A stretch of DNA of 64,000 nucleotides from an uncultured Nitrososphaerota archaeon (lineage in GTDB: Archaea > Korarchaeota > Korarchaeia > Korarchaeales > Korarchaeaceae). The notes beneath the pieces were generated by a model. It saw only the letters and a program-made list of their open reading frames with translations. It was not told where the DNA came from and did no database searches. This document shows, in pieces, positions 10,361 through 57,302 of the stretch. The stretch is from the NCBI GenBank assembly GCA_964594835.1, contig CAZQNA010000005.1, positions 99,771-163,770 of the forward strand. Direction: 5' to 3'. Numbering within the stretch: the stretch's first letter is position 1; every line of letters begins with the position of its first letter. The translations under genes and the position numbers were made by a program.

Positions 10361-11401
10361 TCAGGAGGGCGGGGCGAAGAAGAGGGCCCCGCCACCTGGT
10401 TCTCGCTCCCCCTCAGCGCCGATGTCCACGTGCTTCCAGTCGGAGATAGCCCTGACCTCCCTCCCCCTCCTCCTCAGCAGGTATCCGTAGGCGGAGAGGG
10501 CGGCCGTCGCGCCCATCCCCGCCGATATGACGGCCTGCTTGTAGGGGATGTCAGCGACGTCGCCGGCCGCGAAGACCCCGTCCAAGGAGGTCCTGCAGAG
10601 CTTGTCCACGATTATCTCGCCATTCTCATTGAGGTCCACCAGCCCCCTGACGATCCCAGTCTCGGGCACGTACCCCATCTCCACGAAGACCCCGTCGACC
10701 TGAAGCTCCCTCCTCCCCTCCGGGGTCTCCACCACGACCCCGCTCACCCTCCCCTCTCCCCTGATCTCCACTATCCTCGACCTGGCCAGGACGTTGACGT
10801 TGGGCCTGGATGCGACGGATCTGAAGACCTCCTCCTCCCCTCCCGGGCTCTCTCCCGGAAACACCCAGTGAAGCTCGCTGACCAGGTCCGAGAGCATGCC
10901 AGCGGCCTCTACCCCGTGCGGTCCGACGCCCGCCAGGACCACCCTCTTGCCCCTGAAGAGAGGCGCGTCGCACGTCGCGCAGTAGCTCACCCCCTTCCCC
11001 TTGAACTCCTGCTCGCCCGGCACCCCAAGCTCTCTAGGCTTCTTACCGAAGGCTAGAACGATCGCGTCGGCCCTTAACTCTCCCCCCGTAACGGTCCTGA
11101 CCGTGAATGAGTCCCCCTCCTTTGAGACGCCGGTAACCTCGTCGTACCGGAACTCCGCGCCGTAGAGCTTTGCCTGCTCCTCGACCTTCTTGGAGAGGCC
11201 GAATCCGTCGATGGAGGTGAAGCCTGGGTAGTTCTGTATCTCGGTCGCCAGAAGAAGCTGTCCCCCAACGTCCATCGTGACGACGAGCACTCTCAGATCC
11301 TGCCTTGCCAGGTAGAGTGCCGCGGTCAGACCGGCTATCCCGCCGCCGACAACGATCACGTCATACCTCTCGCCCTGATCCGACCTCTCCGCCATCTTCA
11401 C
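10361..11401 (-). CDS. trxB: thioredoxin-disulfide reductase-like flavoprotein
   Basis: FAD GGGIAG, redox CATCDAPLF, NAD(P) GVGPHGVEAA motifs. Confidence 0.88.
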   Translation of the reverse strand: MKMAERSDQGERYDVIVVGGGIAGLTAALYLARQDLRVLVVTMDVGGQLLLATEIQNYPGFTSIDGFGLSKKVEEQAKLYGAEFRYDEVTGVSKEGDSFTVRTVTGGELRADAIVLAFGKKPRELGVPGEQEFKGKGVSYCATCDAPLFRGKRVVLAGVGPHGVEAAGMLSDLVSELHWVFPGESPGGEEEVFRSVASRPNVNVLARSRIVEIRGEGRVSGVVVETPEGRRELQVDGVFVEMGYVPETGIVRGLVDLNENGEIIVDKLCRTSLDGVFAAGDVADIPYKQAVISAGMGATAALSAYGYLLRRRGREVRAISDWKHVDIGAEGEREPGGGALFFAPPS

Positions 11402-11426
11402 GGTTCTCCCAGCGCGGCTGCCGACG

Positions 11427-11440
11427 GGGTTAATTAACCC
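11427..11440. promoter_or_regulatory. palindromic TATA-like element GGGTTAATTAACCC ~30 nt upstream of trxB start (also potential hairpin after the GNAT gene)
   Basis: seen in sequence; position relative to the leaderless start. Confidence 0.5.
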
Positions 11441-11456
11441 TCACGGGGCAGGAGGC

Positions 11457-12347
11457 TCACCTGCGCCTTATCTCCTTCCTCACCCACGGGCGCCTCTCCA
11501 TCTCCTCGAATCCCGCGGCCGAGAAGGAGGGCATGAACTTCTCCCAGAGCTGGGCCCTCACCCTCCCGAAGCCCGCCTCGGAGGCTATCCTGAGGCTCAC
11601 CTCGACGGCGTCGAACACCTGACCCACGCCGACCCTTGGCTCTCCCCAGAGCATCGCGGACGCCTTTGGCCCGTCCCTAGACGGGATCGCGTAGAGGAGC
11701 AGCGCGAAGTTCCAGGACCCCACCCTCACCCTGAACGCCTTGGGCGACGGGAGACCCAGCCCTACCTCCGCCTGGCCCCAGAGGAGTTCCCAGCTCAGCC
11801 TCCCGGGCCGGACGTGGCCAGCCAGAAGGCAGAGGTTGCTCGGAAAGTCACCCGGCCCCAGCGACACCATTCCCGCCAGTCCGGGGGTGGGCCTGCTGTC
11901 CGCCTCGGCCACAACCTGCCTGGCCACCCTTGAGAACCCCGTGGCCGAGAAGAATCGCTCGCTGCCGGGTATCGGGATCGTGTCGATGACCCTGAAGCCC
12001 CACCCCCTCGCTATCTCGAGGCACCTGTCCAGGAGCGCCTTCCCAACCCCCCTCCCCCTGTACTTCGGGTGAGTCCAGAGGCTGAGGAGGAAGGCGTGCT
12101 CCCCCACGAGGCTCGGCCCCCTGTCGGGGGCTATCTCCGCCTCTCCCACGATCTTGTCCTCCTCAACGGCCACTACCGAGATTCCCCCCGTCCTCCTCAG
12201 GGACTTCAGGTACCAGGCGAGGGCCTCCTCGTCCCCCCACCACCCGAACCTCCTGACCCTCTCCAGGCGGTCGTCCACGCACTCTCCGTACGTGTAGACC
12301 GCGACGATCTCGCCGACGTCGCCCTCATCCGCCTCTCGCAGTATCAT
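11457..12347 (-). CDS. GNAT family N-acetyltransferase, two-domain
   Basis: Acetyl-CoA motif RGRGVGKALL in the N-terminal half. Confidence 0.7.
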   Translation of the reverse strand: MILREADEGDVGEIVAVYTYGECVDDRLERVRRFGWWGDEEALAWYLKSLRRTGGISVVAVEEDKIVGEAEIAPDRGPSLVGEHAFLLSLWTHPKYRGRGVGKALLDRCLEIARGWGFRVIDTIPIPGSERFFSATGFSRVARQVVAEADSRPTPGLAGMVSLGPGDFPSNLCLLAGHVRPGRLSWELLWGQAEVGLGLPSPKAFRVRVGSWNFALLLYAIPSRDGPKASAMLWGEPRVGVGQVFDAVEVSLRIASEAGFGRVRAQLWEKFMPSFSAAGFEEMERRPWVRKEIRRR

Positions 12348-12398
12348 GACGGACAGCCTCTAACCGAGCCCCGCGGGCCAATCAAAAAAGTGCCGTCC

Positions 12399-13861
12399 TC
12401 ACTTCTGCCTCCGCGGGGGAGGACCGACAGGCCGGAGTCTCACGTAGGTAGAGTTGAAGGTGCTTCCCTCACCTATCGCCTGCTTCTCCCTGCTCATTAG
12501 GTCGTTGACGAATCTCCCTGCGAGCCTGCCGGATCTCCTGACCCAGGCCACACCGGGGGAGAGGGACGCATCCACCCTCACGCGGCCCACTGCCCTCCCC
12601 CCGGCCGAGGACTCAATCACGGCCAGATCCCCATCCCTCAGCCCCCAATCGGGTCGCGTCCTCGGGGCTCAAGTGGACGGCATCCTCGGCTGGCTCGTAC
12701 TCGTCCTGGGTTCCGGTCGCGGACGGGATTGAGCTGGAGATCAGCCTCAGCGGGAATCCCCCTGGGGGTTCCTCCCGGCAATCGACGGGAAGTGGAGACA
12801 TGCCCAGTCGTTCTGCGGCCGAACTCCAGAACTCAACCTTCCCGGAGGTGGTCTGATAACGATCCTTTGGCGGATAGACCAGCCTCACGATCCCCTCCTC
12901 CTTCAGAGAGTCCAGCCCACCCGGCAGCATCAGGCTCGACCCCAAGGCCCTTCTGAGAGCCTCCTAGGGACTTTCGCGGACCCACGGGGCTTCGATTCCC
13001 AACTCCTCAGCTATCCTGGCGGCGACCCACCAGTTCGGCCTGCTCTCCCCCGCGGGCCCTACGGCGGGCTCGCTCAGGCCTACGTAGGGGTGCCACCAGC
13101 TCGCCACCACGTCGAGGTGCTCGAACATGCTGGTTACGGGGAGCACGATGTCTGCGAGCCCCGCGGTCTCCGTCCAGAACACTCCGTGGATCACGACGAA
13201 CAGGTCGTCCCTCAGGAGCCCCCTCCTGAAGAGGTCCGACCTGGGCGCCGTCCTCGCCGGGTTGGAGCCGTACACGTAGAGGAACTTGAACCGGCCCGAC
13301 GCCAGGAGAGGCCCCACGTCGAGCAGGTTCACGGTGCCCGAGGGCCTGCCCAGCCCCTCCCTCTAGGTAGGCCGTGTCGAAGTCCCTCGTGGAGTTGCAG
13401 AAGAAGAACCCCCTGTGGACGCCCACCAGGGCGGGTATCAGGGACACGGCCCTGACGGCCTCGGCCCCGCACCTGGTCTTCTGCATACCCACCCCGATGT
13501 AGGTCACGCTCGGCCTCCTCTCGAGGTAGTCCGCCGCCATCTCCATCTGAACGCGGGCGGGAACCCCCGTGATGGACTCCACCCTCTCCGGCGGGTACCG
13601 TGAGATCAGGTCGGCGTACCTCTCGAAACCCGAGGTGAACCTCTCGATGAACTCCCAGTCCGGCCCCAGCTCGTTCACGATGACCCAGGATATCCCGAGG
13701 GCGAGGGGGACGTCGGTCCTCGGCCGGGGCCTGACGTGCCTCCCCAGCAATGCGGTCGGCGTCCTCCTCGGGTCCACGACCCTGTCCCCCTCCACCCTCG
13801 CCAAGAGGCCACATCCGTCGGGGCAGTCTCTCTGACAGATCACTCTCCGCCAGTCTTCCAT
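12399..13861 (-). pseudogene. degraded molybdopterin oxidoreductase (formate dehydrogenase/DMSO reductase family) pseudogene, at least 4 frame fragments
   Basis: N-terminal Fe-S motif ICQRDCPDGCG (13007..13861); mid fragment FLYVYGSNPA...TETAGLADIVLPVTSMFEH (12964..13332); C-terminal molybdopterin-dinucleotide-binding fragment TSGKVEFWS...YPLRLISS (12613..12945); tail in a 4th frame (12399..12620); remnant ~490 aa versus ~650-700 expected. Confidence 0.7.
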
Positions 13862-13916
13862 TCAGCCGGCCCAGGAGCGAACCTCTTAATAATGTAAGGA
13901 GGCTCGAAGGCCCGCT

Positions 13917-15261: not shown

Positions 15262-16644
15262 TCACTCCACCGTCGACAGCAGTAGCCTCCCCCTGGCGGT
15301 TATCGAGTACATCACCCTCGACCTCCCGCTCTTGGACACTGTCTGGACCCTCGCTATGGCCCCCATCTCCTCCAGCGCCTTCAGGTGCTGGTAGACTGCT
15401 GGCAGGGAGATCTCCACGCCGGCATCCCTGAGCCTCCTCCAGATCTCGTACCCGTGAAGCCTACCCGACGTGAGCATCCTCAGTATGGCGGTCTTGGTCC
15501 TGCCGAGCGGCCGCCCCGGCCCCTCCCCCCTCACGTAGGCGTCGGCCAGGTGGAGCCTCTCCAGCTCCCTCACGGCTGCGGTCGGGTCCTTGAGGCCAGA
15601 GCCCGTCACCACCAGGACGACGGTGTCTGAGGGCGACAGCTCCCCCTCCACCCTGAGCCTCTCGGCGGCGGCGAGGGTGGAGGCGGCCGCGGGCTCGGCG
15701 AATATCCCCTCCGCCCGCGCCAGCTTCCTGGATGCCTCCAGCATCTCCTCGTCCCCCACGGTGATCAGGTCGCCCCCGCTCTCTCTAACCGCCCTCTTGG
15801 CCTGGCTCAGCCGATCCGGCTCAGGAAAGTGCAGGTCTAGGGCCACGGCGCTCTCCTCGGTGGGTCTCACTCCGTAGAGGCGCACTCCCTCCCTCTTGGT
15901 GAGTCCCAGCTCCCTCGCCTCCCCTATGCCCTTCCAGACGGCCGTCATCAGGGAGCCGCTCCCGACCGGCAGTATCATGGCGTCTGGCTCGGACCACCCC
16001 AGCGACTCCAAGACCTCAAGGGACAGGGTCTTCTCACCCTCAACCAGGAGGGGATCCGAGTTCATGGCGGAGTAGTAGCGGGCGGGCGTTTCGAGGCGAC
16101 CGTTGGGTGGGGAGACCGCCGCCCCGTAGGCGATCATCTGGTAGAGCTTCGCAGGATCGGTCGGCCCATCCACCCTGATGGCGCAGCCTATCCCGGCCCT
16201 GGCCGCGTAGGCGGCGAGGGAGGCGCCGAGGTTCCCCTTCACCTTCCCGCTCACCCCATCGTATCCCTCCTGGACGACCCTCGTGACGAGGACAGTGGAG
16301 CCCCTGTCTATGAAGCACCCCGTGGGGTTCTTCGTCTCGTCCTTCACCAGCAGCCCCTCCAGGCCCACCTCCCCTCCAAGCCTCCGACAGGCGTGGAGCC
16401 TCGTTCCCCCCTCCCCGAGCGTAATCGGGTCTCTGGACACAGGGAGCAGCTCTCTGTACCTCCACACTCCCGCGACCCTGCTGGCCAGGATCTCCGGGGT
16501 CAGCTCTCCACTCATCTCGTGGAGATCGGGAACCAGAATCAGGGGCTCACCGCACCTCGGACAGGCGGGCTGGACCCTCTCCACCTCCCTCTCCGCCCCG
16601 CACCTGGGGCAGCGGGCCACCCATCTCATCTCAGTTCGATACAT
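15262..16644 (-). CDS. threonine synthase-like (degenerate PLP site) protein fused to N-terminal Zn-ribbon and C-terminal PadR-type winged HTH
   Basis: CPRCG...CPRCG ribbon; collinear with ThrC (RYRELLPVS, EKTLSLEV, VVTGSGLKD); NPTGSFKDRG is NPTGCFIDRG here (codon ATA checked at 16309-16311); STGNT is KGNLG and GNAGN is GSGSL; C-terminal GYEIWRRL...LPAVYQHLKALEEMG is PadR-like. Confidence 0.8.
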   Translation of the reverse strand: MYRTEMRWVARCPRCGAEREVERVQPACPRCGEPLILVPDLHEMSGELTPEILASRVAGVWRYRELLPVSRDPITLGEGGTRLHACRRLGGEVGLEGLLVKDETKNPTGCFIDRGSTVLVTRVVQEGYDGVSGKVKGNLGASLAAYAARAGIGCAIRVDGPTDPAKLYQMIAYGAAVSPPNGRLETPARYYSAMNSDPLLVEGEKTLSLEVLESLGWSEPDAMILPVGSGSLMTAVWKGIGEARELGLTKREGVRLYGVRPTEESAVALDLHFPEPDRLSQAKRAVRESGGDLITVGDEEMLEASRKLARAEGIFAEPAAASTLAAAERLRVEGELSPSDTVVLVVTGSGLKDPTAAVRELERLHLADAYVRGEGPGRPLGRTKTAILRMLTSGRLHGYEIWRRLRDAGVEISLPAVYQHLKALEEMGAIARVQTVSKSGRSRVMYSITARGRLLLSTVE

Positions 16645-16687
16645 AAGCTTACGGACTCAAATATAAGAATGCCGACTTATACATCAT

Positions 16688-17197
16688 GTGGTGTTTGGTG
16701 TGACCGGGCCGAGGAGCACGTCCGTCTGGGCAGCCTTCGCCGGGGTGGGGGCCGCGCTCGTGGCTGCCTCGACGCTGGTCGTTCAGATCCCAGTCCCGGC
16801 GACTCAGGGGTACATAAACCTCGGGGACACGATGGTGATAGCGATGGCCCTGGCCTTGGGCCCGACCATCGGCGCCTTCTGCGGCGGGGTGGGCTCGGCC
16901 CTCGCCGACCTGATATCCGGATTCGCCCACTACGCCCCCTACACACTGCTCATCAAGGGTGTCGAGGGGGCCCTCGCGGGCCTGGTCTCTGGGAGGGGCA
17001 GATGGATGGAGATTGCGGGGGCGGGGGTGGCCGTGGGCGAGATGGTCCTGGGCTACTTCACGGTCGAGGCGCTGCTCTTCGGCCCAGGGGCGGCTGTCTC
17101 AGAGCTGCCGGGCAACATAGTCCAGGCTGCCGCAGGTCTCCTCGTGGGGGTTCCGCTGTCGAGGGTAGTCAGGAGGGCCCTTGAGAGGGTGGGTTAG
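16688..17197 (+). CDS. ECF transporter S component (ThiW/HmpT/PdxU-like)
   Basis: 169 aa, 5-6 TM, glycine-rich helices; GTG start 22 nt after CAAATATAAG box; divergent from the ThrC-like regulator. Confidence 0.65.
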   Translation: MVFGVTGPRSTSVWAAFAGVGAALVAASTLVVQIPVPATQGYINLGDTMVIAMALALGPTIGAFCGGVGSALADLISGFAHYAPYTLLIKGVEGALAGLVSGRGRWMEIAGAGVAVGEMVLGYFTVEALLFGPGAAVSELPGNIVQAAAGLLVGVPLSRVVRRALERVG

Positions 17198-18345
17198 CTC
17201 ACCTCTCTGAGGGCCTCCTTCACCGCCCCCACGACGTACCGAACGTCCTCGTCCCCCATGCCCGGGTGAATCGGAAGAAGGACGATCCTCCTGACGAGGT
17301 CCTCCGCATTCGGGCACTCCAGCTTCCGGAAGCCTTGCCCCCTCCTGATGAACCATAGGGGATCGAACTCCCTCCTCCCGAGCCTGCCCATCACGGGCTG
17401 CTCGTACACCGGCATCGGATAGCTGGGCCTGGCGTCGACCCCCCTGGCCTGAAGGGCCTCCACGAGTCTGTCCCTCCTCTGAACGTCGACCTTCACGGCG
17501 AACAGGTGCCACGCGTGCCTGGCCCAGGGGCGCTCGACTGGCATCTCAATGCCCTCTAATCCCCCCAGCTCGTCCATGTAGAGCCTGGCTATCTCCCTCC
17601 TCCTCTCGTTCATCCGGTCTAGCTTCTTGAGCTGAACTATCCCGATCGCGGCCTGCAGGTCCGTCATCCTGTAGTTCATCCCGAGCGAGACGTGCAGGTA
17701 CTTCGACTCCTGGCCGTGGTCCCTCAGGAGCCTGCACCTCTCGGCCAGGCCGTCGTCGCTCGTCGTCACCATCCCTCCCTCGGCCGTGGTCATGTTCTTC
17801 GTGGGGTAGAAGCTGAAGGCCGCGGCGTCTCCCAGCGAACCGATCCTTCTCCCGCGGTACTCGGCCCCGTGGGCCTGGGCTGCATCCTCCAGCACGAGCA
17901 GGTCCCGTTCACGGGCCAACTTGATGATCGGATCCATGTCGGTCGGGTGCCCGAAGAGGTGGACTGGCACTATGGCCCTCGTCGCGTCTGAGAGGCCCTC
18001 CTCGACCCTGGAGGGGTCTAGGTTGAAGGTCTCTGGGTCCACATCGACGAAGACGGGCGTGGCTCCCGTCATGAGTATGGTTGAGGCCGTGGCGAAGAAG
18101 GTAAGCGGGGTCGTTATGACCTCGTCTCCGGGTCCGACGCCCATGGCCTGGAGGGCCACCAGCAGTGCCACGGTCCCGTTGGAGACCGCCACGCCGTGCT
18201 TGGCCCCGACGTAGGCGGTGAACCCCCTCTCCAGCTCTCTGACCCTCTCTCCCTGGGCGAGCATTCCGCTCTCTATGACCCGCTCGACCTCCCGGATCTC
18301 CTCCTCGCCGAGGGCGGGCCTCGATATGGGGATCCTCCTGGTCAT
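17194..18345 (-). CDS. DegT/DnrJ/EryC1/StrS family PLP-dependent aminotransferase
   Basis: Conserved block begins MTRRIPISRPALGEEE; the 168 aa upstream in the ORF track is low-complexity non-coding-looking; ATG at 18345 has CTTAATTATTG ~25 nt upstream. Confidence 0.85.
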   Translation of the reverse strand: MTRRIPISRPALGEEEIREVERVIESGMLAQGERVRELERGFTAYVGAKHGVAVSNGTVALLVALQAMGVGPGDEVITTPLTFFATASTILMTGATPVFVDVDPETFNLDPSRVEEGLSDATRAIVPVHLFGHPTDMDPIIKLARERDLLVLEDAAQAHGAEYRGRRIGSLGDAAAFSFYPTKNMTTAEGGMVTTSDDGLAERCRLLRDHGQESKYLHVSLGMNYRMTDLQAAIGIVQLKKLDRMNERRREIARLYMDELGGLEGIEMPVERPWARHAWHLFAVKVDVQRRDRLVEALQARGVDARPSYPMPVYEQPVMGRLGRREFDPLWFIRRGQGFRKLECPNAEDLVRRIVLLPIHPGMGDEDVRYVVGAVKEALREVS

Positions 18346-18427
18346 CGCCGAGTGGGTGGCGGGGCAATAATTAAGGGCCTGACAGTCTGGAACGGGTGGA
18401 TCTGTCGACGAGAGAGGGACAGGGTAG

Positions 18428-20188
18428 ATGTTCGAGCCCCACGGGGAGATCAGGAGGCAGGTCTTCTGGAGGAGGGTCGCCGGTCTAACCAGGCGGTACG
18501 GCAAGCTTGAGCTCTCGTCGGTGGCGATAGGGGTCATGGCGGGCCTCTCCGCCGTGGCCCTGGATAAGTCCATAGAGGCGTTCCGACAGCTCCTGGAACT
18601 CATTGAGGGTCGGTGGTCCACTGGCTTCCTCGACCTCGGGTTAATCCTGGCCCCGGCGGTTGGCGGACTGATCTCAGGGGTGATCGCCTGGAGGATAGCC
18701 CCGGACGTGAGGGGGCACGGGATCCCCAACGTCCTGGAGGCCTTCCTGTTCAGGGGGGGCAGGATACCCCTAAGGGTCCCGATAGCGAGGATACTCGCCT
18801 CTGGAGCCCTGATAGGGCTCGGAGGCAGCGCGGGCAGGGAGGGGCCCATAGGTCAGGTCGGGGCCGGACTGGGCTCCTTCGCCGGCCATGTGCTGAAGGT
18901 CCCGGCCAGGCCGAGGAAGCTCCTCCTCATAGCTGGACTCTCGGCTGGGATATCCGCGGCCTTCGACGCGCCCCTCGGGGGGGTGCTGTTCGGACTCGAG
19001 ATCCTCCTGGGAGCGGTCTACTCGGTCGAGCTCATTCCCGCATTCATCGCCTCGATATCCGCGGTCTCCGTGTCCTGGACCCTCAGGAGGGCCATGCCCG
19101 TCATCCTGATCCCCGCGCACATACCCTTCCCCCACCCGGTCGAGGTGGTCGCCCTCCTCGCCGTGGGCGCCCTGGCGGCGGCCGTGGCCAGGGCCTGGGT
19201 GGACACCCTCTACGCCGTCGAGGGGAGGTTCGAGGGATGGGCCGTCCCGCCTTGGGTGAAGCCCGCCGTCGGCGGGCTGCTAAACGGCCTACTGGCCTTC
19301 TGGAGCCTCGGTTGGGGAATAATGGGGCCGGGCTTCGACGGACTCAACAGGGTACTGGCTGGGGAGGGGTCCCTCCAACTCCTCCTAGTCCTGACGGCGA
19401 TCAAGATACTCTCGACCTCCTTCTCGGTGGGATCGGGAGGGTCGGGGGGGATATTCACCCCGACCCTGTTCATCGGGGCCACCTCCGGCGCGCTGGTGGG
19501 GAAGATCCTCAACGCCGTCGCCCCCACGGTGTTCCGCACCCCTGAGATGTTCGCCCTGGCGGGGATGGCGGCCACATTCGCCGCCGCCGTGAGGGCCCCC
19601 CTCACGGCGGTGGTGATAATAACCGAGCTGGGGAGGAACTACAGGCTGATTCCATCCCTACTGGCGTCCTGCTCGACGGCATACTTCCTCTCGCTCATAC
19701 TGATGGAGAGCACCATCTACACGAGGCGGATTGAGGAGAGCGGGAAGAAGGTCCCCGTGGTAGGCTTGGAGGTGCTCGACAGGCTCAAGGTATCCGACGC
19801 GATGGTCAGGGAGGTGGTGACGGTGGGTCCTGACCTCTCGCTCAAGGAGCTCCACGAAGTCATGCTCAGGACCCACCACATGGGGTTCCCGGTCGTCGAC
19901 CGCCAGGGCAGGCTCGTGGGGATGATCGCCTTCGCCGACCTGAGGAGGGTTCACCCGAGCCACTGGGACCGGGTCAGGGTCCGAGACGTGATGAACAGGC
20001 GTCCCGTAACGGCTTCTCCAGAGGAATCGGTTCACGACGCCCTGCTCAAGATGCTGAGGTGCGACGTGGGCAGGCTCCCAGTCGTCGAGGGGGGCAGGCT
20101 CGTCGGGATACTCACCAGGACCGACGTGGTGAAGGCGTACGAGAGGGCGGTCCTGATGAAGGACCTGGAGGAGGCCGCCAGGATGTAG
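18428..20188 (+). CDS. ClC family voltage-gated chloride channel with C-terminal CBS pair
   Basis: GSGIP-like GISGVI, GREGP, GxFxP motifs; two C-terminal CBS domains. Confidence 0.9.
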   Translation: MFEPHGEIRRQVFWRRVAGLTRRYGKLELSSVAIGVMAGLSAVALDKSIEAFRQLLELIEGRWSTGFLDLGLILAPAVGGLISGVIAWRIAPDVRGHGIPNVLEAFLFRGGRIPLRVPIARILASGALIGLGGSAGREGPIGQVGAGLGSFAGHVLKVPARPRKLLLIAGLSAGISAAFDAPLGGVLFGLEILLGAVYSVELIPAFIASISAVSVSWTLRRAMPVILIPAHIPFPHPVEVVALLAVGALAAAVARAWVDTLYAVEGRFEGWAVPPWVKPAVGGLLNGLLAFWSLGWGIMGPGFDGLNRVLAGEGSLQLLLVLTAIKILSTSFSVGSGGSGGIFTPTLFIGATSGALVGKILNAVAPTVFRTPEMFALAGMAATFAAAVRAPLTAVVIITELGRNYRLIPSLLASCSTAYFLSLILMESTIYTRRIEESGKKVPVVGLEVLDRLKVSDAMVREVVTVGPDLSLKELHEVMLRTHHMGFPVVDRQGRLVGMIAFADLRRVHPSHWDRVRVRDVMNRRPVTASPEESVHDALLKMLRCDVGRLPVVEGGRLVGILTRTDVVKAYERAVLMKDLEEAARM

Positions 20189-22197: not shown

Positions 22198-22259
22198 CCA
22201 CCGGCTCCCCCTCTCCAGAAACTTAAAGAGTGTGCATGCCCTTTAGGGCGATCGCATCC

Positions 22260-22739
22260 ATGTCGTCCATGGAGATCCTCGTGGTTCTGGATGCTGACTG
22301 CTCCTCCTCGGAGGAGGTAATACGTCTGCTGGGGAAGATGCTGGAGGAGAGAGGTTACGTCAAGAGCACGTTCGTCGGGGCAACCCTGGAGAGGGAGAAG
22401 AGCGTTCCCACCGGACTCGAACTAGCCGGGGGAGTCAACGCGGCACTCCCTCACGCCGGGGTTGAGCACGTCAACCGGCCGGCCCTGGCCGTGGCCAGGC
22501 TGAGGAGGTCCGTGACCTTCCGCAGGATGGACGATCCGGAGTCCGAGGTCTCCGTCAGGCTCGTGTTCATGCCGGCCATCAAGGAACCGAGCTCCTACAT
22601 CAAGACCCTGATGAGGCTAGTCGACGTCTTCAAGGACCCGGAGGTGATGTCGGCCCTGATGAGGGCCCGCACCGAACAGGAAGTCGTTGAGATCCTGAGG
22701 GAGAGGCTCTCGGCCCCTGAGGGCTCGGGGGAGCCTTAG
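22260..22739 (+). CDS. PTS EIIA component, PTS_EIIA_2 (galactitol/ascorbate/mannitol type)
   Basis: ALPHAG active-site His motif; ORF opens with GTG at 22230 but TATA AACTTAAAGAG at 22219-22229 favours ATG 22260. Confidence 0.8.
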   Translation: MSSMEILVVLDADCSSSEEVIRLLGKMLEERGYVKSTFVGATLEREKSVPTGLELAGGVNAALPHAGVEHVNRPALAVARLRRSVTFRRMDDPESEVSVRLVFMPAIKEPSSYIKTLMRLVDVFKDPEVMSALMRARTEQEVVEILRERLSAPEGSGEP

Positions 22740-22786
22740 AAAGGTTATTAAGTATGATAGTCTGTTGGTGGGAGCTGGGGGAGCCC

Positions 22787-23113
22787 ATGACCGCGAAGCC
22801 CCGTGACGTCAAGATCCTGGTCGCCTGCGGGACCGCTATTGCGACCGCCACGGTCGTGGCGGGCAAGATCAAGCAGGCCTTCGAGAAGCTGAAGATCCCG
22901 GTCACGATAGTGCAGTGCAAGGCGTCGGAGGTCCAGGGCAAGATAGAGGTCTTCGACCCGGACGTCATAGTCGCCAACACACCGATCTCTGAGAAGGCGG
23001 CCAGGGGCAAGCCCGTGATCAACGGGGTACCCTTCCTCACCGGGATAGGGGAGAAGGAGGCTCTGAAGAAGATATTCGAGGCCGTGGGGATAGCCCCTCC
23101 GGCCGACCTGTGA
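22787..23113 (+). CDS. PTS EIIB component, galactitol (GatB) type
   Basis: KILVACGTAIATATV phospho-Cys motif; collinear with GatB; own TATA GGTTATTAAGTATG upstream. Confidence 0.85.
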   Translation: MTAKPRDVKILVACGTAIATATVVAGKIKQAFEKLKIPVTIVQCKASEVQGKIEVFDPDVIVANTPISEKAARGKPVINGVPFLTGIGEKEALKKIFEAVGIAPPADL

Positions 23114-23115
23114 AA

Positions 23116-23121
23116 TTTTTT
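23116..23121 (+). terminator. T6 run after the EIIB stop (archaeal-type terminator signal)
   Basis: tgaaattttttacg immediately after the stop codon. Confidence 0.4.
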
Positions 23122-23286
23122 ACGAAATTAGAGCGACCCTTGAGGCCAGCCCGCTTCTTTTCGGCTTCAGAGCGGACAGTTGGCTCAGGAGGCTCCTTTT
23201 CTCTGGAGTAACAATCGCTAACTTTATTAGTAAGAGTCGAAGTCGTGGTAGTCAGCCGTCGAGCGCAGACGGCTGGTGAGTGGAAG

Positions 23287-24555
23287 ATGGACATCGTTGG
23301 AGCAGTCCAGTGGTTTCTGGGGCTGGGTGCCACGGTAGCCATACCAATAATCCTGTTCATAGTGGGCTTGGCCTTCAAGATACCCGCAAGTAAGGCGTTC
23401 AGGGCGGCGCTGACGATCGCCTGCGGCTTCGTGGGCATAAACCTGGTGATAGGCCTGCTGTGGGGGACCATGAGCGACGTGGCCCAGGCGATGGTGCAGA
23501 GGACCGGGATCGAGCTGACCGTCATCGACGTGGGCTGGCCGGCCGCGGCCGCTATCGCCTGGGGCACGATCGTGGGCGCCCTCACGATCCCGATAGACTT
23601 CATCATCAACATCATCATGCTGGCCCTTGGCCTCACGAAGACCATGGACATCGACTTCTGGAACTACTGGCACTTCGCGTTCACAGGGTCCCTGGTCACT
23701 ATGGCAACCGATAGCGTTCCCCTCGGGCTGATCGCATCCGCAATCAACGCGATAATAGTGTTCAAGCTCGGAGACTGGACGGCAGAGGGAGTGCAGGAGA
23801 TGCTCGGGATCCCGGGCATATCGCTGCCACACGGCTTCTCCGCTGCGTACGTCCCCATAGGCATCCCGATCAAGAAGGCGATCGACGCCATACCACCCCT
23901 GCGGGATGTCAGGGCTGATCCAGAGGCCATCCGGGAGAGGCTGGGCGTCCTGGGGGAGCCGATGGTCATAGGCTTCATAATAGGCATCCTCCTGGCCATC
24001 GCGGCCGGGCAGGACATCGCGGGCATCCTGAACACGGGCGTGACCCTGGCCGGCGTCATGTACCTCATGCCAAAGGTTGTAGCCATACTGATGGAGGGGC
24101 TGGTCCCGATATCGGAGGCTGGCAAGAAGATCCTGGAGGAGAAGTACGGCGGGAGAGAGATGTACATCGGTCTGGACTCTGCGATCGCCATCGGTCACCC
24201 GACCGCCATAGCCGCGGCCCTGATACTGGTCCCGATAACGATAGGCCTCGCGTTCGTGCTGCCGGGCAACAAGTTCCTGCCCCTCGCCGACCTGGCCGTC
24301 CTGCCCTTCATGGTCTGCATGCTCGTGCCGATCGTGAAGGGCAACGTGGTCCACACGGTCATCATAGGGGCGATCGTGCTCATCCCGGCCATGTACATAG
24401 GCACCTTCCTGGCGCCGTACGTCACGCAGGCCGCCATAACCGCGGGCTTCGAGGCCCCTGAGGGGGCTACCCTGATCTCCAGCATCTGCGATGGTACCAA
24501 CCCGCTGACCTTCGTCCTCTTCCTGCCGTTCTACCTCCTGTTCGGGAAGAAGTGA
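23287..24555 (+). CDS. PTS EIIC component, galactitol/ascorbate family (GatC-like permease)
   Basis: Collinear with E. coli GatC: VIDVGWP, KLGDW, LPHG, GEPMVIGF, VMYLMPKV; ~10 TM. Confidence 0.9.
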   Translation: MDIVGAVQWFLGLGATVAIPIILFIVGLAFKIPASKAFRAALTIACGFVGINLVIGLLWGTMSDVAQAMVQRTGIELTVIDVGWPAAAAIAWGTIVGALTIPIDFIINIIMLALGLTKTMDIDFWNYWHFAFTGSLVTMATDSVPLGLIASAINAIIVFKLGDWTAEGVQEMLGIPGISLPHGFSAAYVPIGIPIKKAIDAIPPLRDVRADPEAIRERLGVLGEPMVIGFIIGILLAIAAGQDIAGILNTGVTLAGVMYLMPKVVAILMEGLVPISEAGKKILEEKYGGREMYIGLDSAIAIGHPTAIAAALILVPITIGLAFVLPGNKFLPLADLAVLPFMVCMLVPIVKGNVVHTVIIGAIVLIPAMYIGTFLAPYVTQAAITAGFEAPEGATLISSICDGTNPLTFVLFLPFYLLFGKK

Positions 24556-24639
24556 GAGCGGGCCACCCCAGCCCTCTTCCCCTCTTTTTATTGCGGGCCG
24601 GCTTTCTCCCAGGGTCTGGTCGGAAGGAGGGACTCCACG

Positions 24640-25128
24640 TTGGACGAGTCGAATGGAGGCAGGGCCGTCCTCCTCTCTTACAAGAGGGAGATCGCGGTAA
24701 CCTTGGTAGTTCTGGTGCTGGCTGTCATGTGGCTCCACTCGGCCTTCAGCGTTCACTCAAACCTTAGGCTCGTGTACGCCCAGCCCTACGTCAGCGGAAA
24801 CTTCACCGGCCTCGCGCTGAACTTCACGCTGAAGAACGACGGATTCTACCCGCTCTTCGTCTCCGCGGGAATGAGCCTGAGAGACCCGGAGACGGGGGAG
24901 GTGATCGAGAACTTCTCCGCTTCACTGGGACTGGTCAAGGGTCGCAGCGACGGCTACAGGGTTCTGCTGCTCCCGCTGCCGCCCCAAACGATCGAGCAAC
25001 TCCCTCCGAGGCTCGAGGTCGACATGGTTGGCTACTACGAGGCCAAGCTGTTCTGGCTGCCGGGCATTCGCGTGCCTCTCCACAAGGAACTCGTCGCTCC
25101 CGTGCTGAACGAGACGTGGAAGGGGTGA
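24640..25128 (+). CDS. hypothetical membrane-anchored protein (1 TM)
   Basis: TTG start after T-rich CTCTTTTTATTG; single N-terminal TM. Confidence 0.45.
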   Translation: MDESNGGRAVLLSYKREIAVTLVVLVLAVMWLHSAFSVHSNLRLVYAQPYVSGNFTGLALNFTLKNDGFYPLFVSAGMSLRDPETGEVIENFSASLGLVKGRSDGYRVLLLPLPPQTIEQLPPRLEVDMVGYYEAKLFWLPGIRVPLHKELVAPVLNETWKG

Positions 25129-29118: not shown

Positions 29119-29403
29119 ATGAGTTCAATGGCCCACGCGGAGGCGAGGGTTCAGCTGAGGAACAGAGTGGGACTCCACGCCCGACCAGCGTCTCTCTTCG
29201 TGCAGACGGCAAGGAGATTCAGCTCCAAGATTGTCGTTAGAAAGGATGATAAGGAAGCCGACGCCAAAAGCATCCTCGGAGTGCTCTCCCTGGGCGCCGA
29301 GTGCGGCCACTGGATAACGATCGTGGCCGAGGGAGACGACGCCGAGGAGGCCGTCCAGACGCTGGCGTCCCTCGTCGAGAGCCGATTTGGGGAGGCTGAG
29401 TGA
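29119..29403 (+). CDS. ptsH: phosphocarrier protein HPr
   Basis: Active His in GLHARPAS; GAECGHWITIV; ORF opens with TTG at 29104. Confidence 0.85.
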   Translation: MSSMAHAEARVQLRNRVGLHARPASLFVQTARRFSSKIVVRKDDKEADAKSILGVLSLGAECGHWITIVAEGDDAEEAVQTLASLVESRFGEAE

Positions 29404-31150
29404 CTTGCGGGCCGGCCCCCGGGAGTTCAGGGGCATACCCGCCTCACCGGGAGTCGCTGTCGGGAGGGCTTACCTGTACGTTCGGGGCTACGTAGAGGTC
29501 GAGAAGAGGAAGCTTAGCGAGGACGAGGTCGAAGGAGAGATACTGAGATTTGAGAGCGCCGTCACGCTCTCTAAGGGATACCTGAAGAGGCTGTATGAGA
29601 GGGTAAAGGCGGAGGTGGGCGAGGAGGAGGCGAAGATCTACGAGGCGCACCTGATGATCCTGGAAGACGAGGCCTCCTTCCTGAAGCCCGTGGAGGTCAT
29701 GATAAGGGAGCAGATGGTCAACGCCGAGTACGCCGTCGAGACCGTGCTCGAGAGGGTCGCCAAGCTCTTCGAGGAGATGGAGAGCCAGTACATGAGGGAG
29801 AGGGCGGCCGACGTGAGGGACGTGAAGAGGCTTGTCCTGACGGCCCTCAAGGGGAAGATAAACGAGATCTCGGCGCCTCCGGAGGAGTCGGTCATAGTGG
29901 CCCACGAGCTGCTGCCGAGCGACGTCGCCACCCTCGACAAGTCCAAGGTCCTGGGCTTTGCCACGGACACGGGAGGCCCCACATCCCACGTCGCGATAGT
30001 TGCGAGGACCCTCGGCATACCGGCGGTGGTGGGGCTCAAGGACCTCTCGGTCCACGTGAGGACCGGAGATCAGGTCGTGGTGGACGGGGACCAGGGGCTC
30101 GTGATAGTCAGGCCAGACAGGGAGACCCTCAAGACCTACAGGATCAGGATGTCCGAGCAGATCCGAGAGAAGATGGCCCTCATGAAGTACGCGACCCTGC
30201 CAGCCGAGACGAGGGACGGCTTCAGGATAGGCGTGTTCGCCAACGTCGGGGGAGTGGAGGACCTGGAGCAAGCCCTCACGATGGGGGCCGAGGGTATAGG
30301 CCTGCTGAGGACGGAGTTCATGTACGTCAACTCCCCGAGGTTCCCCACGGAGGATGAGCTCTACTCGAGCCTCAGGAGGTTCGTGGAGAGGATGGGGGAG
30401 AGGCCGGTGATAGTCAGGACCCTCGACATGGGCGCCGACAAGCCGCTCCCCTACTTTTCCATGCCCCCTGAGCCCAACCCCATGCTCGGCTGGAGGGGGG
30501 TGAGGGTCACCCTAGACAGGCCGGAGATCCTCATGACTCAGGTGAAGGCCGCCCTGAGGGCGGCTGTCCACGGGAACCTGTGGATAATGTTCCCGATGAT
30601 CTCCACTGTCGAGGAGGTCAGGAGGGCGAGGGAGCTGATTCACGACGCCGCCTCCCAGCTGAGGAAGGAGGGGAAGGAGCACAGGGATGAGGTGAAGGTG
30701 GGGGTGATGATTGAGACCCCCTCCGCCGTGTTCCTGGCCAGAGACCTGGCCAGGGAGGTTGACTTCTTCAGTATAGGGACCAACGACCTCACCCAGTACG
30801 TCATGGCGGCCGACAGGACGAACGAGCTCGTGGCCGACCTCTACAACCACCTCCAGCCCTCCGTGATCAGGGCCGTCAGCCGGGTTGTGCAGGCCGCGAG
30901 GGAGGTGGAGATCCACGTGGGAATGTGCGGGGAGATGGGCGGGGACGAGCTTGCCATCCCCCTGCTAGTCGGAATGGGACTGGACGAGATCAGCATGGCC
31001 CCGGCCTCAATCCCCAGGGCCAAAAGGTTGGTGAGATCGATAACTAGGGAGTCGGCCGAGACCCTCTTGGAGGAGGTCCTGAGGGCGAGCACGCTCGGCG
31101 AGGTTAGGGAGATCCTGGAGTCGTACGCGAGGTCAATCTCATACGACTAG
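29387..31150 (+). CDS. ptsI: phosphoenolpyruvate-protein phosphotransferase (PTS Enzyme I)
   Basis: GIPASPGVAVG N-terminus, phospho-His GGPTSHVAIVAR, PEP-utilizing C-terminal domain; start may be TTG at 29405. Confidence 0.9.
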   Translation: MGRLSDLRAGPREFRGIPASPGVAVGRAYLYVRGYVEVEKRKLSEDEVEGEILRFESAVTLSKGYLKRLYERVKAEVGEEEAKIYEAHLMILEDEASFLKPVEVMIREQMVNAEYAVETVLERVAKLFEEMESQYMRERAADVRDVKRLVLTALKGKINEISAPPEESVIVAHELLPSDVATLDKSKVLGFATDTGGPTSHVAIVARTLGIPAVVGLKDLSVHVRTGDQVVVDGDQGLVIVRPDRETLKTYRIRMSEQIREKMALMKYATLPAETRDGFRIGVFANVGGVEDLEQALTMGAEGIGLLRTEFMYVNSPRFPTEDELYSSLRRFVERMGERPVIVRTLDMGADKPLPYFSMPPEPNPMLGWRGVRVTLDRPEILMTQVKAALRAAVHGNLWIMFPMISTVEEVRRARELIHDAASQLRKEGKEHRDEVKVGVMIETPSAVFLARDLAREVDFFSIGTNDLTQYVMAADRTNELVADLYNHLQPSVIRAVSRVVQAAREVEIHVGMCGEMGGDELAIPLLVGMGLDEISMAPASIPRAKRLVRSITRESAETLLEEVLRASTLGEVREILESYARSISYD

Positions 31151-55906: not shown

Positions 55907-57301
55907 CTAGCCGACGGACACGGCGGCCCCCTCCACCTCGACGGCCGCGCCGAGGAGGTCCCTGATAAGGACCTCCTCAATGCCCTCGACGGCCGCCTCG
56001 TCGTACAGCACCAGGTATCCGCCGTCCCCCCTGGGCGCGACATCCCTCACCACGTAGTGGACCAGGCCGGAGTGGGCCAGGAAGTTCCTCACGTGCTCCC
56101 TAGTGTATCTCGCCGAGAGAGCTTCCTCTAGGAGCCTGGCCGCCCTTGAGTCGTGCCGGGCCGCCATAAGCCGCTCTAGCCAGGCTCCGAGTTCTTCCCT
56201 CAATCTCTCCGGGTCCCGCTCGGACCTGAGGAAGTCCAACGTCCCTCCGGCCAGGAACCACAGCCTGAAGAGAGGGGCTCCCGCCGGGAGTTCGCCGACC
56301 CTGCACTCGGCGGCCCTCCTCTCCAGTAGGAAGCTGGAGAGCGTGGACCCGGAGCTTGAACCGCTGCCCGGATCCTCCACGGTGCCCGAGACCTCTGAGA
56401 GGAGCAGGTGATACTGGAGGGCCATCCCACTCCGCCTGTAGGCGCGGAGCAGGCCGGCTATGAGCTCAGAGGGGAGCTCCCCGGGCCTCGTCCAGGGACC
56501 CACCCCGAGCGCCTCGGCCGCCCTCAGGGCGAACTCCCTCAGGAGAATCGGGACGGCGTCGATAGCCGAGGTGTGAGAGGCGGATCTCGCGACCTCCTCG
56601 CCGACTCGGCTGAGCAGCCTGCTTAGATGAAGGTGAACGACGATCGGGGTCCCCAACGACACTCCAAGAGATAGCAGGGCCGCTTCCCTGACGAGCTCGG
56701 CGACTGAGCACGGCTCGAGTGATCTAGAAGTCTCGAAGAGTTCCACCCAGAGGGACTCCCTGTGCGGCTCCACGACAACCCTTGAGAGGGACTCGGCGAC
56801 TCGGGCGACCTCCAGCACCCTCTCGGGAGGGAGGTCGGCGACCCCGGACCTGTTCGAAAGTCTTCGGCCCCTCCTGGCCACCAAGGTCAACCTTCTACCT
56901 GAAGCCAGCGAGTGGGCCAAGGCCCCCAGCAGGGCGGACGACGTCAGGGAATCAAGCTCCCCCCAGGGGAGCAGGAATATTACGGTATCGGCCTCCACGG
57001 AAGATAGAATCGATACGCAGGCGGAGAAGGCCGCCTCCCCCGAGCCGCAGGGATGATTCCCCAGGGAAGACCCATCGAGGTTGGCGAAGACCAGCCTGAT
57101 CGGTAGGTTCGATCCCCCGAGGCCCCCAGCGCGGATCCGCGTGGGGATCTCCCCGGGGGCCAGCAGGATCAGGTTGGCGGACTTGCCCCCGCGGACTAGC
57201 TCTCTCACCCCAGAGAGAGCCCACTCCACCGCCTCATTGAGAGACTCGGCGTCCACCGGCGCTCCAGAGGCGCACATGGGAAGAAGAATCGCAAGCGGCA
57301 A
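55907..57301 (-). CDS. hypothetical protein (464 aa)
   Basis: Protein-like composition; translationally coupled to the upstream gene (TGA at 57303-05, TTG at 57301). Confidence 0.5.
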   Translation of the reverse strand: MPLAILLPMCASGAPVDAESLNEAVEWALSGVRELVRGGKSANLILLAPGEIPTRIRAGGLGGSNLPIRLVFANLDGSSLGNHPCGSGEAAFSACVSILSSVEADTVIFLLPWGELDSLTSSALLGALAHSLASGRRLTLVARRGRRLSNRSGVADLPPERVLEVARVAESLSRVVVEPHRESLWVELFETSRSLEPCSVAELVREAALLSLGVSLGTPIVVHLHLSRLLSRVGEEVARSASHTSAIDAVPILLREFALRAAEALGVGPWTRPGELPSELIAGLLRAYRRSGMALQYHLLLSEVSGTVEDPGSGSSSGSTLSSFLLERRAAECRVGELPAGAPLFRLWFLAGGTLDFLRSERDPERLREELGAWLERLMAARHDSRAARLLEEALSARYTREHVRNFLAHSGLVHYVVRDVAPRGDGGYLVLYDEAAVEGIEEVLIRDLLGAAVEVEGAAVSVG

Positions 57302-57302
57302 G

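Follow-up and report, generated by a model that had tools for sequence, protein, structure and literature searches.

A threonine synthase-like pseudoenzyme fused to a PadR winged helix, a probable vitamin B6-responsive repressor of Archaea

What would a threonine synthase do with a DNA-binding domain at its C-terminus, once the lysine on which its chemistry depends has been replaced? The question is raised by a gene of an uncultured Nitrososphaerota archaeon, placed by GTDB in the Korarchaeaceae (Korarchaeota), that lies within positions 99,771 to 163,770 of contig CAZQNA010000005.1 (assembly GCA_964594835.1); this whole stretch of 64,000 nucleotides is called here the window, and coordinates are counted from its first letter. 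The gene encodes a fusion of an N-terminal zinc ribbon, a fold-type II pyridoxal 5'-phosphate (PLP) enzyme domain resembling threonine synthase (ThrC) and a C-terminal PadR-type winged helix-turn-helix (wHTH), and it is transcribed divergently from the gene of an energy-coupling factor (ECF) transporter S component (ECF-S). We propose that the fusion protein probably responds to vitamin B6 and represses both the ECF-S gene and its own, and that elsewhere its family controls the PLP synthase genes pdxS and pdxT (pdxST). The parts of the gene are as follows.

15262..16644, minus strand: gene of the ThrC-like pseudoenzyme with PadR wHTH, 460 aa as the longest open reading frame (ORF); likely start Met6 at 16629, giving 455 aa
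16552..16611, minus strand: N-terminal CxxC...CxxC zinc ribbon (residues 12-31), with C12, C15, C28 and C31 invariant
15601..16425, minus strand: fold-type II PLP-enzyme (ThrC-like) domain (residues 74-348) without the catalytic lysine; Pfam PALP, 1.5e-53
16309..16311, minus strand: ATA codon of Ile112 at the Schiff-base lysine position, read directly from the sequence
15277..15486, minus strand: C-terminal PadR-type wHTH (residues 387-456); Pfam PF03551, 1.2e-11

The ORF is real, and its tripartite nature, as recognized in a first, sequence-only reading of the locus, is borne out both by Pfam and by an AlphaFold2 model. The PadR match reaches 44.9 bits against a cutoff of 27; the zinc-ribbon matches are weak (residues 11-35), and the four ribbon cysteines are invariant in a 36-sequence alignment of the family. 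The model, built on that same alignment (predicted local distance difference test score, pLDDT, 88.1; predicted template-modelling score, pTM, 0.74), opens at the N-terminus with a small beta ribbon, continues with the ThrC fold and, after a linker modelled with low confidence (residues 350-375), ends in a wHTH in which helices (H) and strands (E) follow one another in the order H-H-H-E-E-H (H381-391, H398-407, H414-426, E430-438, E441-448 and H450-459). Its top Foldseek matches are ThrC structures, with template-modelling (TM) scores of about 0.78. The C-terminal 80 amino acids, whose assignment the sequence-only reading had singled out for checking, are a wHTH both by their PF03551 score and by this topology, and the recognition helix carries a motif, xxYQHLxxLE, that hardly changes from clade to clade. 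The true start of the protein is probably Met6 (16629) and not the ATG at 16644, because the NCBI entry that is 100% identical to the window protein is called at 455 aa, the orthologue in locus L085 starts at the position equivalent to Met6, and a conserved non-coding box overlaps the ATG at 16644.

Fold-type II PLP enzymes need their Schiff-base lysine for chemistry, and in the fusion protein this residue is absent. Its best PDB sequence match is ThrC 2d1f (4.9e-45), followed by 6cgq, 1uim and 2zsj. In the alignments with 2d1f, 6cgq and 1uim the motif NPTGSFKDRG faces NPTGCFIDRG of the fusion protein, so that Ile112 stands where Thermus thermophilus ThrC has its Schiff-base lysine, K61 (a number counted from the alignment). 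The replacement had first been read from the sequence, with the proviso that an alignment to ThrC might locate the catalytic lysine elsewhere; all three structure alignments put Ile112 at that position, and the codon there is ATA (16311-16309 of the minus strand). The protein moreover scores below the thrC cutoffs of TIGR00260 (137.7 against 167.1 bits), NF004170 (241.6 against 421) and NF006050 (218.8 against 303).

The remainder of the pocket tells which functions were lost with the lysine and which were not. When pocket positions were mapped from the T. thermophilus ThrC alignment onto the family alignment, N106, P107, F111, D113, R114, G115, G137, N138, G228, G230, T347, G348, G350 and K352 proved invariant or nearly so among the 36 sequences. 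In T. thermophilus numbering, N138 is N87, G228-x-G230 falls in the Gly-rich loop G187-N191 (family consensus GxGG[HLN]) and T347 is T317; we take the kept positions, from the published T. thermophilus structures, to be those that contact the PLP ring, O3', N1 and phosphate. The lost positions are K61 (I112), T88 (L139) and R160 (L200 here, with F or L in the family at large), and around the last two the family consensus reads GNLGA and DPFFLEGEKT. In the published structures T88 and R160 bind the phosphate of O-phosphohomoserine. The pattern reads as that of a protein in which the cofactor site was retained and the chemistry and the substrate site were removed.

One argument for decay had to be abandoned. 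The sequence-only reading had also called two phosphate-loop motifs degenerate (STGNT to KGNLG and GNAGN to GSGSL), but KGNLG and GSGSL cannot be taken as degeneration because unfused zinc-ribbon ThrC-like proteins that possess the lysine have the same motifs, carrying STGNLA.S, GNL[AG] and P.[GA]SGS[QL]L. They are signatures of the subfamily (NF006050/PRK08197-like); in the fusion protein the asparagine (N138) is kept and the second loop is still Gly-rich. Since the ribbon too occurs in these unfused, lysine-containing relatives (matches start at residue 11), it is, by this comparison, an inheritance from the unfused subfamily and not a new acquisition.

Loss of the lysine is a trait of the whole family and correlates almost perfectly with the presence of the wHTH. 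A protein search over 5.8 billion proteins gave 2508 matches, the best 120 of which were inspected; almost all of these are archaeal PALP-PadR fusions, and together with the query they hold at the lysine column I (64), L (25), V (18), M (12), S (1) and N (1), with no K among the 121. An exhaustive profile search over 1.84 billion representatives of 50%-identity clusters yielded 150 top clusters, 77 of them with a wHTH, and the column was readable in 71 of the latter: L (22), I (20), V (9), R (7), M (4), T (4), A (1), N (1), S (1) and K (2). The lysine is hence absent from 69 of 71 wHTH-fused representatives and present in 55 of 59 unfused ones, the four unfused clusters that lack it looking truncated or atypical. 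Among the fetched loci of species-representative genomes the division is complete, every PadR-fused protein being without the lysine and every unfused relative, whether bacterial (Acidimicrobiales, Nitrospirota and others) or archaeal, possessing it.

Named members come from Korarchaeota, with one 71% identical to the window protein, and also from Methanomethylicota, Bathyarchaeia, Nitrososphaerota, Thorarchaeota, Thermoprotei, Thermococci, Odinarchaeota and metagenome-assembled genomes of Methanomicrobia. This phyletic census is a sample, drawn from about 25 usable fusion loci among the genome-scan matches listed, which were mostly ordinary bacterial zinc-ribbon ThrC genes. A sister clade bears arginine at the lysine column (114 of 118 sequences) and includes cultured Pyrococcus, Thermococcus and Palaeococcus. 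NCBI, JGI and UniRef name the members of the family threonine synthase. The NCBIfam model NF004170, itself named threonine synthase, spans the window protein from end to end, wHTH included, so that the fusion architecture is already catalogued, but as an enzyme. A protein of the Arg-type clade attains 805 bits with this model, for which the cutoff is 421, and NF004170 was evidently modelled on that clade; generic thrC cutoffs are exceeded by some fused proteins as well (for example P0063). Because fused proteins pass both NF004170 and the generic thrC cutoffs, the family is systematically named as an enzyme. The earlier statement that the architecture is no characterised regulator family agrees with the literature searched, which contains no description of the fusion family or of an archaeal B6 regulator.

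Some relatives depart from the general pattern. A few fused members keep the lysine (P0181, P0187, P0290 and P0292, the last from Palaeococcus pacificus) in the motifs NPTNSFKDR, NPTSSFKDR and NPTGSFKDRF, and these may be evolutionary intermediates or bifunctional enzyme-regulators. Other lysine-keeping relatives, of about 610-630 aa, have in place of the wHTH an extra C-terminal segment of about 200 aa (P0210, P0217, P0218, P0236, P0244, P0245, P0260, P0271 and P0273). In eight loci of Nitrospirota (L028, L032, L041, L047, L056, L057, L069 and L077) an unfused zinc-ribbon ThrC-like paralogue with the motif HPTLSFKDRV is located directly upstream of a canonical thrC (NPTGSFKDRG); this adjacency of a variant-motif paralogue and canonical thrC suggests that the NF006050-like zinc-ribbon subfamily, annotated as threonine synthase, has a different catalytic role. 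In locus L001 a second PALP protein of 479 aa without a PadR match is encoded 4 kb from the fusion gene (11307-12746, minus strand), and it may be an unfused or diverged paralogue.

The divergent gene and the elements of the promoter region shared with it are these.

16688..17197, plus strand: ECF-transporter S component of the PdxU/PdxU2(HmpT) family, predicted target, 169 aa; PF07155, 3.8e-33
16662..16681, no strand assigned: putative operator, inverted repeat TATAAG-N8-CTTATA, situated in the common promoter region, where it overlaps the TATA-box-like elements of the two divergent genes
16639..16650, no strand assigned: third conserved promoter box, ATACATAAGCTT on the plus strand, overlapping the annotated ATG at 16644

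The two genes are 43 bp apart on their longest ORFs, as the sequence-only reading had it; an alternative GTG start at 16700 would give an ECF-S protein of 165 aa. That reading had also called the S component ThiW/PdxU-like and had suggested a comparison with the PdxU, ThiW and HmpT families; of these, PdxU2/HmpT is indicated by the PF07155 match and by the fact that HmpT/PdxU2 is its sole solved homologue: the only PDB match is 4HZU chain S (2.6e-13), and RibU, ThiT, BioY and FolT were not matched in the same PDB search. Chain S of 4HZU is HmpT/PdxU2 of Lactobacillus brevis, and the substrate extracted from it was pyridoxamine (PMC4860826); PdxU and PdxU2 both belong to PF07155/COG4720 (PMC9997740). 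Of the six conserved pocket residues of HmpT (E41, H84, Q87, Y120, N140 and Q143), the archaeal protein keeps Y120, N140 and Q143, and has an acidic residue at position 41 (E41 to D).

The association of the two genes outlasts that of their surroundings. Close korarchaeal relatives share the whole neighbourhood, which proves little alone, but P0007, 47% identical to the window protein and with all other neighbours different, still has a divergent ECF-S gene 50-56 bp away. An ECF-S gene adjoins the fusion gene in about 15 of the 25 usable loci among the matches listed, in Korarchaeota, Thorarchaeota, Nitrososphaerota, Bathyarchaeia and Pelearchaeum, and it is either divergent at a distance of 24-140 bp (the window, L084, L085, L086, L005, L006-L009, L011, L012 and L016) or immediately downstream on the same strand (L017, L018 and L023). 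About ten usable loci have no adjacent ECF-S gene, and in L014 the divergent partner is an amino-acid-permease-like gene. Elsewhere the partner is B6 biosynthesis itself. In L015, from Nitrososphaerales, the fusion gene diverges from pdxS (SOR_SNZ, 2.3e-95), which is followed by pdxT (SNO, 2.2e-48); pdxS and/or pdxT is the divergent partner also in L106, L132, L142, L147 and L163, and in L147 pdxS, pdxT and ECF-S form one divergent operon. The earlier idea of a dead fold-type II scaffold reused for sensing, in a transcription factor directed at the ECF-S gene, thus gains from the loss of the lysine, from this linkage and from the repeat described below. Its ligand, left there between amino acid and B6 vitamer, can be narrowed to B6 because the ECF-S protein is PdxU2/HmpT-like and other members pair with pdxS-pdxT.

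The promoters of these genes carry an inverted repeat that is specific for the pair formed by the fusion gene and ECF-S or pdxST. In a main group, comprising promoters of Thorarchaeota, Bathyarchaeia, Nitrososphaerota type and Pelearchaeum, the repeat has the fixed geometry ATATATAAG-N6-CCTATATAT, also written ATATATAAG-N6-CCTATATATAGG. It is present in loci without an adjacent ECF-S gene (L010, L014, L015 and L001), and neither a change of partner to pdxST nor the absence of any divergent partner separates it from the fusion gene (L010, L014 and L015). A relaxed pattern, TATAWAAG-N6-CYTWTATA, has a single match in each of 12 loci, 30-60 bp upstream of the fusion gene, and none in 577 kb of bacterial control loci, which are GC-richer. 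The motif ATATATAANNNNNNNCCTATATATMGG, used alone as a metagenome query, gave at least 120 exact matches, and 80 of these were fetched as loci. A ThrC-like gene is found directly to the right of the motif in 69 of the 80, in one orientation and with a median of 10 nt from motif to start codon, and an ECF-S gene is found to its left in 63 of those 69; the lysine column of these operator-linked ORFs holds I (46), V (9), L (6), T (2) and M (1), and no K. Variants on the arrangement exist. The same-strand pairs of Bathyarchaeia have a near-perfect 22-bp palindrome, TAGTATAGTTATAACTATACTA, directly before ECF-S, and in Thorarchaeal loci a GNAT acetyltransferase gene stands between operator and ECF-S. 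In the window and its korarchaeal relatives (L209, L084 and L085) the arms of the putative operator are conserved and the spacer is variable. The third box repeats the ACATAAG/ATATAAG half-site in direct orientation, at a distance of 20 bp from the first, and is conserved in the window, L209, L084 and, outside any coding sequence, L085.

As we envisage its action, the fusion protein would be a dimeric transcription factor in which the inactivated ThrC-like domain is the sensor and the C-terminal PadR winged helix the reader of DNA. Devoid of the lysine and of the substrate-phosphate residues and with the PLP positions kept, the sensor would bind a B6 vitamer, most likely PLP, in a reversible and non-covalent manner. 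The ligand-bound dimer would then occupy the inverted repeat, which overlaps TATA box and TFB-recognition element (BRE) in the short intergenic region, and so would block TBP and TFB at both promoters; the location of the arms at TATA positions fits repression by occlusion of these factors. The result would be repression of the divergent ECF-S gene, coding for a PdxU2/HmpT-like B6 importer that would use an ECF module encoded elsewhere, and of the gene that encodes the regulator. In further lineages of Archaea the regulator, acting through the same operator, would control the PLP synthase operon pdxS-pdxT.

Several observations weigh against this proposal. We infer the identity of the effector from the regulon and the fold only, and DNA binding by the fusion protein, its ligand, the direction of its regulatory effect and what the S component transports are all predicted. 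The ligands of PadR-family proteins usually release them from DNA, and the co-repressor logic could therefore be the reverse of that drawn above. Three replacements in the HmpT pocket, H84K, Q87E and S136E, are near-invariant among 65 archaeal ECF-S sequences, and because of them the transported vitamer, and even the class of substrate, is uncertain. The 64-kb window contains no ECF module, no pdx genes and no canonical thrC, and about 40% of the usable family loci have neither ECF-S nor pdxST as a neighbour.

The weakest link is the korarchaeal operator, which is less certain than that of the main group. Its spacer is N8 and not the N6 of the main group, and the main-group pattern has no match in the window or in the korarchaeal loci. 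ATAAG-N8-CTTAT matches once in 64 kb, where 0.15 matches are expected, and at least one match arises in 14 of 100 shuffles, so that the occurrence is not significant alone. All operator arms, moreover, resemble TATA boxes and lie at the expected TATA positions of both promoters, and for this reason part of their conservation could reflect promoter architecture. Two motif matches, given here in the orientation that puts the motif on the plus strand, adjoin thiamine genes: that of L140 (576-602) is placed between ECF-S and a ThiT gene (Thia_YuaJ, 3e-47), and that of L159 (1250-1276) has as neighbours a gene for Thi4 thiazole synthase and one for a small HTH_3 protein. Such sites may represent cross-talk with thiamine metabolism, or chance.

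The Arg-type clade, finally, offers no B6 context. Two of its genes are the following.

L212, 6001-7323: Arg-type fused gene of Pyrococcus horikoshii
L213, 6001-7335: Arg-type fused gene of Thermococcus onnurineus NA1

In Thermococcales the gene has a conserved position 5 bp downstream of fttA (aCPSF1), which comes after a proteasome subunit gene, and no B6 genes were found beside it in the context of L212 and L213; the B6 assignment is therefore not extended to this clade.

Other explanations share parts of the same evidence. One keeps the transcription factor and its regulon and changes the effector: in place of a free B6 vitamer the former active site would bind an amino acid, O-phosphohomoserine or an adduct of PLP with an amino acid, and B6 supply would be tied to amino-acid status. 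We regard it as unlikely, although several points favour it: the domain derives from an amino-acid-metabolising enzyme, many residues of the ThrC active-site shell are kept beyond the PLP contacts, the partner in L014 resembles an amino-acid permease, and PLP is the means by which bacterial regulators of the MocR type, GabR among them, sense an amino acid (PMC5320631). The residues for the phosphate of O-phosphohomoserine have, on the other hand, been lost, no internal aldimine can form without the lysine and transaldimination is thus unlikely, and with a PdxU2-like transporter and pdxST as the recurring targets the end product is the simplest signal.

A more doubtful possibility is that the ThrC-like domain binds no ligand and is a dimerisation scaffold for the wHTH, regulation being constitutive or exerted through the level of the protein. 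ThrC enzymes are known to be dimeric and a palindromic operator needs a dimer; the tolerance of the lysine column for I, L, V, M, T, R, S, N and A could likewise mean relaxed constraint. But the replacement is patterned by clade, hydrophobic in one and arginine in the other, and not random, and about 14 pocket positions, among them the O3' asparagine, the N1 threonine and the Gly-rich loop, have remained near-invariant across phyla at about 40% identity, for which a scaffold would have no need.

It is quite improbable that the inverted repeat does no more than supply two leaderless, divergent genes with their TATA boxes and that the conserved synteny has no regulatory meaning. Both arms are TATA-like, the spacing of the TATAA cores differs by clade (8, 10 and perhaps 12 bp), and the recognition helix barely varies while the geometry of the operator does. 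Against this, a pattern of 20 specified bases retrieves hardly anything but this gene pair (69 of 80 fetched loci), the repeat persists with a pdxST partner or with no divergent partner (L010, L014 and L015), the two genes are found together again in phyla that have none of the other neighbours in common, and Bathyarchaeia have a different 22-bp palindrome before their same-strand ECF-S. Scarcely credible, finally, is a protein with real threonine synthase activity, alone or, as a 'trigger enzyme' on the model of RbkR, an active enzyme-regulator (PMC5397151), together with a role in transcription; for although the databases name the family threonine synthase, NF004170 covers the whole architecture, P0063 surpasses generic thrC cutoffs and P0181, P0187, P0290 and P0292 keep the lysine, the window protein has isoleucine at the Schiff-base position, has lost the substrate-phosphate residues and scores below every thrC cutoff, and its genomic partners are B6 genes and not thr genes.

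The proposed B6-responsive repressor can be set beside several known systems. With threonine synthases of the NF006050/PRK08197 type it shares the fold, the ribbon and the motifs GNL[AG] and GSGS[QL]L, being collinear over residues 11-352 at 33-37% identity; it differs by isoleucine in place of the lysine, hydrophobic residues at the equivalents of T88 and R160, an extra PadR domain of 80 aa and B6 neighbours. The winged helix is above the Pfam threshold for the PadR family, and, as with PadR and LmrR, a dimer is to be expected and inverted-repeat operators with a fixed spacer are predicted here; canonical PadR proteins, however, are of about 110-180 aa and have an N-terminal wHTH followed by a short C-terminal dimerisation helix, whereas the wHTH of the fusion comes after an enzyme-like sensor of 370 aa. 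The target, similarly, resembles HmpT/PdxU2 of L. brevis in its PF07155 domain and in Y120, N140, Q143 and the acidic residue 41, and differs from it in H84K, Q87E and S136E, so that the preferred vitamer may differ, and in having no ECF A/T genes nearby.

Archaeal vitamin regulators of like design exist, such as ThiR, in which a ThiN-like domain is combined with an HTH. RbkR, a riboflavin kinase with a wHTH, is likewise an archaeal vitamin regulator assembled from a DNA-binding domain and a domain of vitamin enzymology, with a regulon made up of biosynthesis, uptake transporters and its own gene and with operators that differ between lineages (PMC5397151). It is still an active kinase, has an N-terminal MarR-like wHTH and serves another vitamin, whereas the sensor of the fusion protein, catalytically dead, would come from an enzyme that uses PLP and not from an enzyme of the B6 pathway. 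The closest functional parallel to draw is with the PdxR/MocR regulators, in which a PLP-enzyme fold is also the sensor of a wHTH transcription factor. Their regulons in bacteria hold pdxST, pdxK, pdxU and often GNAT acetyltransferases, and they are arranged divergently, are probably autoregulated and have repeat-type operators (PMC5320631). A regulon (predicted in the archaeal case) of pdxST and a PdxU-type S component, often with acetyltransferases, is common to both, as are the divergent arrangement, the probable autoregulation and the repeat-type operators; the resemblance is one of function only, and the Thorarchaeal GNAT gene recalls the RimI/RimL-type genes of PdxR/PdxW/PdxQ regulons (PMC5320631). 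The proteins are non-homologous. MocR is bacterial, joins an N-terminal GntR wHTH to a fold-type I aminotransferase-like domain, keeps its lysine and binds PLP covalently, while the archaeal fusion has a C-terminal PadR wHTH, a fold-type II sensor without the lysine and an N-terminal zinc ribbon.

The DegT/DnrJ/EryC1 gene does adjoin ECF-S, as the sequence-only reading had stated, but is no part of the regulatory unit: three gene callers give it 383 aa, it is convergent with ECF-S, the 3' ends overlapping by 4 bp, and because of this orientation the two are not co-transcribed; its presence is conserved only among close korarchaeal relatives. The 551-aa ORF that represents it (17194-18849, minus strand) is too long by about 168 codons, a spurious stretch lying over part of the CLC channel gene. 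Rfam gave no match in the window. At 12400-13900 (minus strand) a molybdopterin oxidoreductase gene is spread over several overlapping frames (ORFs 13007..13861, 12964..13332 and 12613..12945), and its orthologue is intact, at 649 aa, in the relative L084 but measures 244 aa in L209 and 114 aa in L088, so that in this lineage the gene seems to be in decay. Components EIIA, EIIB and EIIC of a phosphotransferase system (EIIC-GAT type, by the gene calls of the identical contig L088) and an Enzyme I (PEP-utilising, 587 aa) are encoded at about 22200-24800 and 29387-31150; phosphotransferase systems are uncommon in Archaea. A 512-aa ORF at 58426-59964 (plus strand), whose only Pfam match is an HTH_24 wHTH, coincides with the sole patch of low GC content (0.52 against about 0.65), which could be foreign DNA, and the two ORFs just upstream (55907-58046) have no Pfam match. 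In L086, a TIP49/RuvB-like ATPase and a phage-type integrase near the fusion locus (1-2222 and 10696-12792) each contain Intein_splicing and LAGLIDADG domains.

A wider reading, which we offer tentatively and with more doubt than confidence, would make of the lysine-less fold-type II domain a reversible, non-covalent PLP sensor and of the family a second, independent invention of PLP-responsive control. The regulator would be ancient, because it is common to Asgard, TACK and euryarchaeal lineages. Its half-sites would themselves be the TATA boxes, the regulator competing with TBP; the near-invariant lysine found in the S component at the place of HmpT His84 may bind pyridoxal or PLP as a Schiff base; and the Arg-type clade of Thermococcales and Odinarchaeota would hold related sensors that control other genes.

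A survey of PLP salvage in Bacteria and Archaea lists only regulators of the PdxR type (PMC9997740), and the same is true of PMC5320631. The principle of an enzyme-fold sensor joined to a wHTH is known; the family, the combination of domains, sensing without the lysine and the archaeal setting are new. The linkage described here would give independent genomic support to archaeal PF07155 S components as proteins of B6 uptake, a function hard to propagate by homology (PMC9997740). It also exposes an error of annotation, since thousands of archaeal entries named 'threonine synthase' or 'PLP-dependent enzyme', including those of Pyrococcus and Thermococcus, lack the lysine and have a DNA-binding domain. 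The thermophilic members may provide a candidate scaffold for a PLP biosensor, and the family as a whole, with its rare fused forms that keep the lysine, would be a natural example of the passage from enzyme to pseudoenzyme sensor. If the proposal is true, Archaea would gain in this family, with its operator motif and predicted regulon, a first proposed regulator of B6.

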